Shown here in pieces: positions 112 through 4,644 of a stretch of 12,996 bases of DNA. The notes below the pieces were generated by a model, which was not told the DNA's origin, made no database searches, and was given only the letters and a program-made list of their open reading frames with translations. Origin of the DNA: a virus (taxonomy: Duplodnaviria > Heunggongvirae > Uroviricota > Caudoviricetes); IMG/VR virus record IMGVR_UViG_2547132488_000019, positions 1 through 12,996 of that record. One strand, written 5' to 3'. Every line of letters begins with the position of its first letter. The stretch's first letter is position 1. Made by a program: the position numbers and the translations under genes.

Positions 112-1209
112 ATGGCGTACTATAACATAGAGAAACGACTAAAATCCGATGGCACACCACGCTATCGCTGTAATGTGATTATCAAAGAAAAAGGTGTTAT
201 CACTTACAGGGAAAGCAAAACATTCCCTAAACATGCTCATGCCAAAACATGGGGCACACAGAAAGTGATGGAATTAGATCTATATGGCATTCCATCATCA
301 AATGCAGTTGACGGACTTACAGTCCGTGACTTACTACACAAATATTTAAATGACCCAAATGCCGGAGGTAAAGCAGGCCGTACTAAAAGATATGTGCTAG
401 AACTGATTATGGATAGTGACATCTCCGCGATCAAACTATCTGAACTGACAGAAAATGACGTAATTGAACATTGCAGGCTAAGAAACAACGCTGGCGCAGG
501 TCCAGCAACAGTCAGCCACGATGTTAGTTATCTTGGTAGTGTTCTGGATGCGGCCAAACCTGTATACGGAATTAATTACACATCAAACCCGGCGAAAAGT
601 GCTCGTCCATATCTACTTAAACTTGGTTTGATTGGTAAATCAAACCGTCGTAATCGTAGACCAGCATCTGATGAACTGGACATGCTAATTGAAGGCCTTC
701 AACAACGATCTACTCATAAATGCTCAAAAATTCAGTTCGTTGATATCCTCAAATTTTCTGTGTGGTCCTGTATGCGAATCGGAGAAGTATGCCGGTTACG
801 ATGGGAAGATCTCGACCAGGAACAAAAATCTATACTCGTAAGAGACAGGAAAGATCCACGCAAAAAGGAAGGCAACCACATGAAAGTAGCCTTGCTTGGG
901 GAAGCCTGGGATATCGTCCAACGACAGCCCCAAAAATCGGAATTCATTTTTCCATATAACAGCACTTCTGTTACTGCGGGATTTCAGAGAGTAAGAAGCA
1001 AATTAGGTATTAAAGATCTGCGATACCATGATTTGCGTAGAGAAGGGGCAAGTCGCTTATTTGAGGCTGGTTTTAGTATTGAGGAAGTCGCCCAGGTTAC
1101 AGGGCATCGTTCATTAAACGTGCTATGGCAGGTATATACCGAACTGTATCCGAAATCTTTACATAATCGTTTTGAAGAGCTCCAAAGGAGCAGAAATAAG
1201 ACCCCTTGA
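112..1209 (+). CDS. int: Tyrosine-type site-specific integrase/recombinase
   Basis: 365 aa; C-terminal catalytic signature of tyrosine recombinases (Arg in ...MRIGEVCRLRWEDL..., H-x-x-R in ...YHDLRREGASRLFEAG..., GHRS... and terminal Tyr in ...VYTELY); SD GAGG 7 nt upstream of ATG. Confidence 0.8.
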   Translation: MAYYNIEKRLKSDGTPRYRCNVIIKEKGVITYRESKTFPKHAHAKTWGTQKVMELDLYGIPSSNAVDGLTVRDLLHKYLNDPNAGGKAGRTKRYVLELIMDSDISAIKLSELTENDVIEHCRLRNNAGAGPATVSHDVSYLGSVLDAAKPVYGINYTSNPAKSARPYLLKLGLIGKSNRRNRRPASDELDMLIEGLQQRSTHKCSKIQFVDILKFSVWSCMRIGEVCRLRWEDLDQEQKSILVRDRKDPRKKEGNHMKVALLGEAWDIVQRQPQKSEFIFPYNSTSVTAGFQRVRSKLGIKDLRYHDLRREGASRLFEAGFSIEEVAQVTGHRSLNVLWQVYTELYPKSLHNRFEELQRSRNKTP

Positions 1210-1234
1210 CACTGTTTATCCATACAGCTAAAAA
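1206..1234 (+). promoter_or_regulatory. Sigma70-like promoter of the dinI-like gene (-35 TTGACA 1206-1211, 17-bp spacer, -10 TAAAAA 1229-1234)
   Basis: Perfect -35 hexamer overlapping the int stop codon; -10 is a 4/6 match. Position relative to the LexA boxes is typical of SOS promoters. Confidence 0.5.
1210..1229 (+). promoter_or_regulatory. LexA box 1 (cACTGT-ttatccat-ACAGct)
   Basis: CTGT-N8-ACAG at 1212-1227, overlapping the promoter spacer. Confidence 0.55.
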
Positions 1235-1237
1235 TAA

Positions 1238-1257
1238 TACTGTATACAAACACAGTA
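1238..1257 (+). promoter_or_regulatory. LexA box 2 (TACTGT-atacaaac-ACAGTA)
   Basis: Both half-sites match the E. coli SOS-box consensus TACTGT-N8-ACAGTA exactly; sits between the -10 and the SD of the dinI-like gene. Confidence 0.75.
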
Positions 1258-1270
1258 TAGAGGGACTTTT

Positions 1271-1519
1271 ATGCGTATTGAAATCTGCATAGCCAAAGAA
1301 AAAATGACTAAAATGCCAACCGGTGCTGTGGATGCGTTAAAGGAAGAATTAACCCGACGCATCAGTAAGCGTTATGACGATGTAGAGGTGATCGTAAAAG
1401 CCACCAGCAACGATGGCCTTTCTGTTACGCGCACAGCCGATAAAGATTCAGCTAAAACTTTTGTGCAGGAAACTCTGAAAGATACCTGGGAGTCTGCTGA
1501 CGAGTGGTTTGTTCACTAA
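1271..1519 (+). CDS. dinI: DinI-family protein (DNA-damage-inducible protein I-like, RecA modulator)
   Basis: 82 aa; MRIEICIAK..., ...GAVDAL..EL.RRI..., ...LSV..., C-terminal ...[16 protein letters not shown] closely match E. coli DinI as I recall it; SD GAGGG 7 nt upstream; preceded by two LexA boxes. Confidence 0.88.
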
Positions 1520-1522
1520 TGA

Positions 1523-1586
1523 GCACTATCGGAAGTTCACCTGCCAACCACAGCACGTTCTTGCATACAACGTGCCTGCGGTTTTT
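1523..1586 (+). repeat. Direct repeat copy 1 (~64 bp, ~75% identical to 3126-3189)
   Basis: gcactatcggaagtt...gcacgttcttgcatacaacgtgc...ggttt versus gcactatcgaaagtt...gcacgttcttgcatacgacgtgc...ggttt; aligned by eye, same length, same orientation. Confidence 0.6.
1546..1586 (+). terminator. Putative rho-independent terminator after dinI-like gene
   Basis: Hairpin GCACGTT-cttgcatac-AACGTGC (1553-1575), extendable with a bulge, followed by TTTTT (1582-1586). Moderate stem GC content. Confidence 0.45.
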
Positions 1587-2793: not shown

Positions 2794-2814
2794 ATATTGT
2801 AGTTTCTGATTGAG

Positions 2815-2845
2815 GACCTCGGCTACTACGCCGGGGTCTCTTTTT
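2815..2845 (+). terminator. Rho-independent terminator of the peptidase-like gene
   Basis: GACCTCGGC-tactac-GCCGGGGTC (9-bp GC-rich stem, one G-U pair) followed by TCTCTTTTT, 22 bp after the stop codon. Confidence 0.65.
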
Positions 2846-2963
2846 ACATCACTGGACAGTCATCAAACTCCGCATTCCTAGCATCGTGATGATGTACGTG
2901 ATTGCTCCGAATATTGAGTGTGAGTAATTGTAGCCACCACCATCATCTGGCAGTGCTTCCGTT

Positions 2964-3310
2964 CTCCAGATTTATCAGGTGGGACTAAGGGTGAGTACGA
3001 TATCGCTTAATCCTGAAACTCCATTTCAGACAGGGCCCCTATTACAGACCGAAAGACCACAGATAAGTAGTTTGTTCATAAATTAATGCGTAGAATCAAT
3101 AACGGCTGGAAATCATTCAATACTCGCACTATCGAAAGTTTGCCAGCCAGCCGTGGCACGTTCTTGCATACGACGTGCTACGGTTTCATTTATCTCCCGA
3201 AACTCCATTTGGATTTATCCGGTGCGCCGTAAAACCCCGTCCTTCAGGGCGTGGAGGATGTCAACTGGACGCACTGGAACTGGTCGATACTTCCGGTGCG
3301 CCAGATATTG
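2964..3310. repeat. Cluster of short degenerate repeats in the 520-bp non-coding gap
   Basis: GATTTATC(A/C)GGTG(G/C)G at 2968-2983 and 3211-3226; GAAACTCCATTT at 3014-3025 and 3199-3210; CCGGTGCGCC at 3219-3228 and 3293-3302. Confidence 0.4.
3126..3189 (+). repeat. Direct repeat copy 2 (partner of 1523-1586)
   Basis: See copy 1; contains hairpin GCACGT(T)-cttgcatac-(G)ACGTGC, extendable to ~12 bp with G-U pairs. Confidence 0.6.
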
Positions 3311-3316
3311 AATGGC

Positions 3317-3919
3317 CTACGCCTCCGGCAGTTCAGGCCAGATGACATCCGGCTCGGTGCTGGTATCTGTTGCCGTCACTGCGTCAATGTAATCCAGCAC
3401 AGCGTTAAGCCGGGTTGTTTCTGCCTGCGTCAGCTTCCGTCCGGCCTGTAATTTCAGTTGAATCAGACTGATGGAAGCCATTGCTGCATCAATCAGTGAC
3501 TGGCGTTGGATTTCTGCCGCGTCTACTGCGGCGCTATATTGTGCCTCGGTATCGGTCACCCATTTCTCTCCATCCCATTTATCGTATGGCGTTAATGGGG
3601 CGATAGTGGTTGTATTTTCAGGGTAATCCCCCAGAGCTGTGATTTCTTTTGATTCTCCTGTTTCAGTGCTATATACAATTTCACTGCGATGGTCTGGTAC
3701 ATATTCCCATGAGTTTAAACCTGCAGAACGGCAAATAGCATAACCATCTTTACGTGTGGCAGGAGCATCTAAACATGAATATGCCGGAATACCGACACCA
3801 ACGGCAATATATTCAATAGATGGGGAAATATACTCTCGCGTTTCACCGTCAAAGTTATAAACAGTAACATTTCCAGCCTTCGTAGCAATATGTTCGCTAT
3901 TTAATACAGCATTATCCAT
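3317..3919 (-). CDS. tfa: Tail fiber assembly protein (Tfa/gpU-like chaperone)
   Basis: 200 aa; C-terminal ...RLNAVLDYIDAVTATDTSTEPDVIWPELPE typical of Tfa proteins; start overlaps the tail-fiber stop (TAATG); lower GC than the upstream tail genes. Confidence 0.85.
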   Translation of the reverse strand: MDNAVLNSEHIATKAGNVTVYNFDGETREYISPSIEYIAVGVGIPAYSCLDAPATRKDGYAICRSAGLNSWEYVPDHRSEIVYSTETGESKEITALGDYPENTTTIAPLTPYDKWDGEKWVTDTEAQYSAAVDAAEIQRQSLIDAAMASISLIQLKLQAGRKLTQAETTRLNAVLDYIDAVTATDTSTEPDVIWPELPEA

Positions 3920-4644
3920 TACACAGCTCTCACAATATAGTTAAATGCAATATTACGAGGGCGAGATTCTCTCCCCCCCACCGAGTTAGTACTATCGGAT
4001 CTCTGTTGATTTACTGAGCCAGAAACATCAGCGGCTAAAAGATAATATCCACCTGTTGTATCAAATCCAGTTTGTGCCCATGTTCTTTCGAAATAATGAC
4101 TATGTGATTTAAATTCATCTGTTTGAGTTGATAATAACGCGCGCCCACTATCCACTCCACGCCCATCATCCCAGCCACGAATAAACTCACCGCGTAAATC
4201 AGGTAATTTATTTGTCGGGTAAACCCTCGCCAGTTTAGGATATTCAACGGCAGAAAAAGCCGCACCGTTACATTTCAGCCAGCCAGTAGGCGGTATTGCA
4301 GAAGGCCACGGAACAGGCACACCAACGGGTAATGCCGAACCTTCTCCCAAACCAAGGTTTTCGAGAGCCGTTTTCACCGTGCCATCCGATTTGATATCGC
4401 CAAACGGATTCTTGCGGCTTAACAGCAGCGCACGAAGCGCGGTAAGCAGCTGGTCATGCCGCCCCTTCTCCAGGCTGGCACCGGATGCCTCCACCACGCT
4501 GCAGAGTTCTTCCTGCAACATGTCAAAGTAGTCATCATCCAGATCGGTGGCAGGCGTACCAGTCTGGGGGTTACCACGGGTAAAACCGTTCTTACCCGCG
4601 CCGAACTTATCCTTCTGCGCGGTTTTCGTATCTATACGATGCAT
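3919..4644 (-). CDS. Tail fiber protein (short; tail-collar-type C-terminal receptor-binding domain)
   Basis: 241 aa; C-terminal ...[22 protein letters not shown]...[39 protein letters not shown]... resembles phage tail-collar domains; directly precedes tfa; GC-rich 5' part and AT-richer 3' part. Confidence 0.8.
4342..4367. other. Hin/Gin/Cin/Pin-type crossover-like site (TTCTCCCAAACC-AA-GGTTTTCGAGAG) inside the tail-fiber gene
   Basis: Core AAACC-AA-GGTTT matches hixL (TTCTTGAAAACCAAGGTTTTTGATAA as I recall it; about 20 of 26 positions). Lies at the compositional boundary inside stf and encodes ...[10 protein letters not shown].... No invertase gene is in the window. Confidence 0.35.

Follow-up and report, generated by a model that had tools for sequence, protein, structure and literature searches.

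The window analyzed here is a 12,996-bp stretch of DNA from a tailed phage (IMG/VR record IMGVR_UViG_2547132488_000019, positions 1 to 12,996) and is the entire draft contig APZX01000167.1 of assembly GCA_000357685.2. Near its left end, the integrase gene, int, lies beside the tail-fiber genes, and it is this linkage that concerns us. The gene map is based on the open reading frame (ORF) listing, Pfam matches, and the gene calls of the source contig, all of which are concordant. On the plus strand, int (112-1209; PF00589, E = 6e-21) encodes a 365-residue, dusA-specific tyrosine recombinase of the dusA-associated integrase (DAI) family. It is followed on the same strand by a gene encoding a DinI-like protein (1271-1519; PF06183, E = 1e-19; NF007893, E = 2e-20, with a score of 73 bits that is under the curated cut-off of 111) and by a gene encoding an SDH/ClpP-like peptidase (1789-2793; PF01972, 27 bits, under the gathering score). 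A non-coding gap of 523 bp (2794-3316) then separates the peptidase gene from tfa. The genes that follow are all on the minus strand: tfa itself (3317-3919), which encodes a TfaE-like tail-fiber assembly protein (Caudo_TAP, PF02413, E = 6e-30), a gene encoding a 241-residue short tail fiber with a Collar domain (3919-4644; PF07484), and a Mu/SfV-type baseplate and tail module assigned by Pfam (4648-12996) that comprises gp48, gp47, gp46, gp45, gp44/P, gp43, orf173, the tape measure, a tail assembly protein, and the tube. Accordingly, int and the tail operon converge, with nothing but the DinI gene, the peptidase gene, and the gap between int and tfa. This proximity had been pointed out in the initial annotation of the window, and the ORFs, the Pfam matches, and the contig gene calls agree with it.

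The first 23 nucleotides of the window are the beginning of a phage-supplied dusA 5' end (dusA'), which reads on the minus strand with its ATG at the reverse complement of positions 21-23. Relatives of the window were found by megablast against complete E. coli genomes, and in two of these, UTME-7 and GXU-23-25-310, dusA lies directly upstream of int in divergent orientation. The annotated dusA start of UTME-7 and the dusA fragment carried by phage SKA5 (OR670062) are both identical to window positions 1-23. We aligned five sequences, namely the bacterial attachment (att) site of K-12 (attB), the left and right junctions of the UTME-7 prophage (attL and attR), and the phage attachment site (attP) regions of SKA5 and mEp460. 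In this alignment, attL matches the host on its left and the phage on its right, attR shows the opposite order, and the change from one to the other takes place inside an 8-bp block, TCGAGCAT, that is common to attB, attL, attR, and attP. In the coding sense of dusA, this crossover core is ATGCTCGA and occupies dusA nucleotides 97-104. The core lies upstream of int in UTME-7, SKA5, and mEp460, which places it 74-81 nucleotides to the left of window position 1. Before the core, 18 of 96 nucleotides differ between the hybrid dusA of the UTME-7 prophage and K-12 dusA, whereas after it only 14 of 934 do; the displaced host dusA 5' end is kept at the far junction as a 105-nucleotide stub, or pseudogene, at attR. 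The replacement dusA 5' end is therefore seen in the relatives; of dusA', the window itself has nucleotides 1-23.

The divergent intergenic region between dusA' and int (24-111) is the P' arm of attP. Three copies of the motif GGTTCCC are found there within 35 nucleotides, two on the plus strand (57-63 and 69-75) and one on the minus strand (85-91), and the window as a whole has 8 copies where 1.45 would be expected. Relative to the core, the P'-arm copies lie at +137, +149, and +165. On the P arm, two copies of the more general motif GGNTCCC lie at -61 and -50 in SKA5 (18013 and 18024), in mEp460 (5859 and 5870), and in UTME-7 attR. There are thus five motifs in total around the core, and all five are conserved in SKA5, mEp460, and UTME-7. 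We consider them candidate arm-type Int sites. We found no mention of GGNTCCC motifs around the core in the available portions of two published studies of dusA-specific elements (PMC4482086 and PMC6328086).

The UTME-7 prophage is the relative that covers the most of the window, matching 12,628 of its 12,996 bases (97%) at approximately 98-99% identity, while SKA5 matches approximately 60% of the window at 93-98.6% identity. Both share the int-DinI module and the Mu/SfV-type tail. In UTME-7, attL and attR bracket a single element of approximately 40.6 kb whose annotation, from junction to junction, includes no other integrase. Reading from the int side, the order is dusA, int, DinI, IS903B, peptidase, pin, tail fibers, tail, head, terminase, lysis, Q, replication, and cro; at the far end lie cI, early genes, a PrtN-family gene, a Panacea-domain gene, the dusA 5' pseudogene, yjbM, and zur. 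Likewise, in the virion or phage records of SKA5, mEp460, and phi1720a-02 (KF030445), the early arm and the core come first, and dusA'-int-DinI is followed by tail-fiber genes in the opposite orientation. We conclude, with high confidence, that the DNA comes from a temperate phage with a Mu/SfV-type contractile tail that integrates in the 5' end of dusA, and that the window represents its int-proximal (attL-side) arm. The gene order, nucleotides 1-23 of dusA', the P' arm sequence, and the LexA boxes described below were seen in the window itself, and the att structure, the borders, and the order of the element were seen in its close relatives. By comparison with these relatives, the phage would also be integrated in dusA in the source strain. 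An att site upstream of int had been one of the layouts offered in the initial annotation, and the dusA junction directly upstream of int, together with the attL and attR sites that bracket one phage in the relatives, supports it.

Given this arrangement, a simple pathway would account for the position of int. In the circular phage, attP would lie upstream of int, and the circle would run from the early arm through the P arm, the 8-bp core, and a surrogate dusA 5' end of approximately 96 nucleotides with its promoter (the P' arm) to int, and then through DinI and the cargo to the tail-fiber and tail genes, which read the opposite way. Strand exchange in the core would break the circle 5' of int. 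The left part of the resulting prophage would then consist of the 3' part of the host dusA, the core, and the phage dusA', followed by int, DinI, the cargo, the tail fibers, and the tail. The remainder would consist of the head, lysis, and replication genes, cI, the early genes, and the PrtN-like gene, and would end at the displaced host dusA 5' stub. The early genes and the PrtN-like gene would thus go to the far end upon integration, and the PrtN-like protein may serve as a directionality factor. With attP 5' of int, integration places int at the left edge of the prophage, still joined to DinI, the cargo, and the tail-fiber end, and the linkage between int and the tail fibers is alike in the phage and prophage forms.

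A prophage integrated in prfC in strain 11PC provides an informative contrast. Its DinI-peptidase-tail-fiber arm is approximately 94% identical to window positions 1206-4700, but its DinI gene abuts prfC and an unrelated integrase of 407 residues lies at the opposite end, approximately 38 kb away. Homology with 11PC starts at approximately position 1206 of the window, which is where the int stop codon meets the DinI promoter. This contrast and the position of the break indicate that the layout belongs to the integration module and is not the product of a rearrangement. Phages of the lambda type, among which we count the 11PC prophage, cdtI, and lambda itself, resemble the window in having a moron slot between the tail fibers and the integration module. 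They differ from it in that attP lies between DinI and an unrelated int, and integration therefore moves int to the opposite end of the prophage. Satellite P4 offers a closer parallel, since its att lies 5' of int and overlaps the int promoter region, and int is the first gene inside attL; however, its integrase is unrelated, its target is a tRNA gene, and it is not a complete tailed phage. A scan of the window for a tRNA gene, as would be expected of a tRNA-type att, detected none. In P2, int is transcribed towards attP, which makes P4 the better analogy. The label "P2/P4-like" that had been suggested for the window is thus apt in placing att upstream of int and loose in its reference to P2.

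The position of int beside the tail fibers is the standard layout of dusA-specific elements; it is common and has already been described. The DAI family was defined by Farrugia et al. (2015; PMC4482086), who list mEp460 among the hits. Its members carry int next to the dusA 5' end with the island on the 3' side of int, and it is the island that supplies the dusA 5' end. The att is described there as semi-conserved and 21 bp long, PrtN homologues are reported for 64% of the islands, and prophages account for about half of all the islands. The att described there for A. baumannii (…CTCCAATGATGGACTGGAC) aligns with the E. coli site (…CACCAATGCTCGACTGGAC). Comparison with the published family features shows the same tyrosine int at the dusA 5' end and, in the relatives of the window, the same replacement of that end, an att core inside the conserved 21-bp motif of the region coding for APM(L/M)DWT, with imperfect direct repeats at attL and attR, and a PrtN homologue. 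The window departs from the family in no essential respect, contributing only an SfV/Mu-type tail module and a peptidase moron to a group whose cargo is already known to vary widely.

The integrase itself is nearly identical to those of other members of this group, with 361 of 365 residues (99%) shared with the Int of phi1720a-02 and 358 of 364 (98%) with that of mEp460. The catalytic set R..HxxR..H..Y, which we matched to the canonical positions by inspection, consists of R222 (in MRIGE), H306 and R309 (in HDLRREG), H332 (in GHRS), and Y342 (in VYTE). Like the window, the Stx2dact phage phi1720a-02 has dusA'-int-DinI-like genes and then convergent tail-fiber genes; unlike the window, it belongs to the lambdoid siphoviruses, has a J-type tail, stx2, and a different structural module, and is without the peptidase cassette. 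According to Balasubramanian et al. (2019; PMC6328086), experiments place the integration point of phi1720a-02 100 bp into dusA with a core of 7 bases, regeneration of attP requires Int, and the orientation, in which int is adjacent to attL, is termed "noncanonical". Among complete E. coli genomes, 727 of 5,426 contain the dusA'-int-DinI junction when at least 80% of window positions 1-1300 must be covered, and the full-length junction matches that we sampled were all annotated as dusA, integrase, and DinI. The layout is therefore not the anomaly that the initial annotation had implied.

The initial annotation had also allowed that the linkage reflects the phage form, with the contig derived from excised or virion (attP) DNA and int beside the tail fibers for that reason. 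We regard this as quite unlikely. Window positions 1-111 are identical to both UTME-7 attL and SKA5 attP and are phage-derived in both, so the integrated and excised forms are indistinguishable from the window alone, and lysogens of the close relative phi1720a-02 do hold some attP, a minority amounting to 0.44% of reads (PMC6328086). However, the linkage holds whatever the physical form, and the integrated prophages of the 727 complete genomes have it too; in addition, the contig comes from a bacterial genome assembly, in which integrated copies should dominate. The phage form is therefore not needed to explain the linkage. An inversion or deletion in a lambda-type prophage could likewise have brought int beside the tail fibers, and the window does show a local change of this kind: the invertase and one set of fiber-tip and tfa genes are missing, the remaining set is flipped, and one hix-like site is left. 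But this event is confined to approximately 3188-4367 and did not create the linkage, which is present in invertase-retaining relatives as well as in lambdoid ones that have no invertase. Thus, we consider such an origin of the linkage highly improbable.

A further possibility is that int, DinI, and the peptidase gene constitute a separate small islet, or tandem element, that abuts the tail-fiber end of an unrelated prophage. The GC content of 42-45% over window positions 1-3000, as compared to approximately 58% in the tail module, would fit such an islet, as would the modular behavior seen in GXU-23-25-310, where an int-DinI-peptidase block that is 98.8% identical to window positions 1-3192 is joined to a lambdoid siphovirus tail of the J type. 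Yet a search of the gap and the rest of the window for an att-like copy (core plus flank, with at most 3 mismatches) found none, which rejects a tandem islet and also an attP positioned, as in a lambda-type module, between cargo and tail fibers. In UTME-7 and GXU-23-25-310 the gap is internal to the prophage. In addition, the UTME-7 junctions bracket the whole 40.6-kb phage with no other integrase annotated between them, int-DinI is contiguous with the tail fibers in phage genomes, and the DinI-peptidase arm of 11PC lies inside a prophage that has a different int. An islet is therefore scarcely credible. Both a rearrangement and an islet had been raised in the initial annotation, and both are contradicted by the presence of int-DinI beside the tail fibers in mEp460, SKA5, and phi1720a-02 and by the lack of a second att.

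Integration in dusA as the source of the layout has points that weigh against it. The core and the host part of dusA are outside the window, the contig stopping 74 nucleotides short of the core, and no E. coli phage record has a close match (at least 60% identical) to the peptidase. With regard to the break at the left end of the contig, we considered whether the repeat formed by dusA' and the displaced host dusA 5' end could be its cause and rejected this, since the two are only approximately 81% identical and share short exact runs; the distance of 74 nucleotides between the break and the core also disfavors a break caused by a repeat. The value of assigning the window to a dusA-specific phage lies mainly in annotation: the left border of the prophage is placed at dusA, 74-81 nucleotides past the contig end, DinI and the peptidase are to be read as phage-borne morons rather than as an islet, and int beside the tail fibers in phages of the dusA type is no evidence of excision or rearrangement. 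The layout was already known, and no open question is advanced by it.

The cargo between int and the tail fibers consists of DinI, which has a LexA-controlled promoter of its own, and the peptidase cassette, and both are morons inside the prophage borders. The segment at 1206-1255 (plus strand) contains the DinI promoter and two LexA boxes and is also the mosaic joint with phages of the prfC type. The promoter-like site consists of TTGACA, an 18-nucleotide spacer, and AAAAAT, and it is flanked by two zero-mismatch LexA boxes (CTGT-N8-ACAG) at 1212-1227 and 1240-1255. Judging from these sites, the phage DinI is probably SOS-induced. DinI is also present in the records of mEp460, SKA5, cdtI, and phi1720a-02.

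Window positions 1-1526 and 3066-3187 are collinear with SKA5 18155-19779 and with mEp460 6001-7623. Therefore, positions 1527-3065 (plus strand) are extra and represent a 1.54-kb insertion relative to both phages; the cassette is accordingly lacking in SKA5. It is composed of a spacer, the peptidase gene, a terminator-like hairpin (2814-2839), and a fragment of an S24/LexA-like pseudogene on the minus strand (approximately 2844-3017), which is annotated in UTME-7. On either side of the insertion stand direct-repeat copies of the dinI 3' end with its terminator hairpin. The second of these, in the gap at 3066-3187 (plus strand), is decayed and corresponds to 1503-1587, the two sharing a 53-nucleotide core that is 83% identical. 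This decayed copy is itself flanked by a 16-nucleotide direct repeat, TCCYGAAACTCCATTT, whose copies at 3011-3026 and 3195-3210 are identical at 15 of 16 positions. The 16-nucleotide repeat resembles a Din-type half-site only weakly. The description of the gap as "repeat-rich" is thus partly right, in that the gap contains the diverged dinI copy with its hairpin and the 16-nucleotide repeat.

The peptidase matches phrog_21683 over its full length, while Pfam and NCBIfam give only sub-threshold similarity to ClpP/SDH. It is an uncharacterized protein with an SDH/ClpP fold and an acidic tail. In a tblastn search against phage records, the peptidase matched only two phages, one of Klebsiella (59%) and one of Burkholderia (38%). 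We nevertheless consider the peptidase phage-borne because its gene lies inside the prophage borders in complete genomes and because the PHROG match is full length. A PADLOC scan of the peptidase, DinI, and orf173 gave no match, and an Rfam scan of the whole window gave no family at the gathering score.

In relatives, the slot between int and the tail fibers is occupied by IS903B, DUF4145, or pin, and the equivalent slot of the prfC-type phage cdtI contains cdtABC, cif, and nleH. It is conceivable, though rather doubtful, that this slot is a moron hotspot, that recombination at dinI transfers the cassette between phages of the dusA- and prfC-integrating types, and that the peptidase has an undescribed function in lysogenic conversion or against other phages. 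The IS903B of UTME-7 (13742-14800) lies upstream of the peptidase gene, at the equivalent of window positions 1734-1742, and the homology blocks that flank it have 9 bp in common, a pattern that fits a target duplication of this length. A stretch of approximately 530 nucleotides from the N-terminal half of int (window positions 232-761, residues approximately 41-217) is found at 95% identity in cdtI (7120-7649), where it lies between cdtA and cif and is annotated as "hypothetical proteins"; the same stretch occurs in many E. coli genomes. It looks like a relic of a dusA-type int in prfC-type phages and would reflect a past replacement of the integration module.

At the other side of the gap, tfa matches the tfaE of UTME-7 in inverted orientation. 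The tail-fiber gene contains a single hix/pix-like (Din-type) crossover site, TTCTCCCAAACCAAGGTTTTCGAGAG, at 4342-4367, which is unique in the window and, in comparison with SKA5 and UTME-7, lies where constant homology gives way to invertible homology. Both of these relatives differ from the window in retaining a Pin-type invertase and an invertible fiber-tip/tfa segment. We found no invertase ORF in the window, which thus has neither the invertase nor the two inverted sites of a Din-type (Pin/Gin/Cin) invertible switch. Compared to UTME-7 and SKA5, one alternative set of fiber-tip and tfa genes is absent, and the remaining tip and tfa are flipped. Since the invertase and one such set are gone and a single hix-like site is left, the tail fiber appears to be locked in one orientation. 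This local rearrangement (approximately 3188-4367) is real but is not the source of the linkage between int and the tail fibers.

The remainder of the tail module contains the domains expected of a Mu/SfV contractile tail, namely Phage_Mu_Gp48, Baseplate_J, GP46, Phage_Mu_Gp45, GpP-like, DNA_circ_N, and PhageMin_Tail, and window positions 4341-12996 are 98.4% identical to UTME-7. The window ends on its right at the tube/sheath boundary, just as it ends on its left 23 nucleotides into dusA'. Between the genes for the DNA-circulation protein and the tape measure lies orf173 (9747-10268, minus strand), which encodes 173 residues and has a GC content of approximately 0.35. Its only match is to phrog_5586, a family of unknown function, with no match in Pfam or NCBIfam. 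A hypothetical gene is present at the same position in UTME-7 and SKA5, and orf173 looks like a moron within the tail module.

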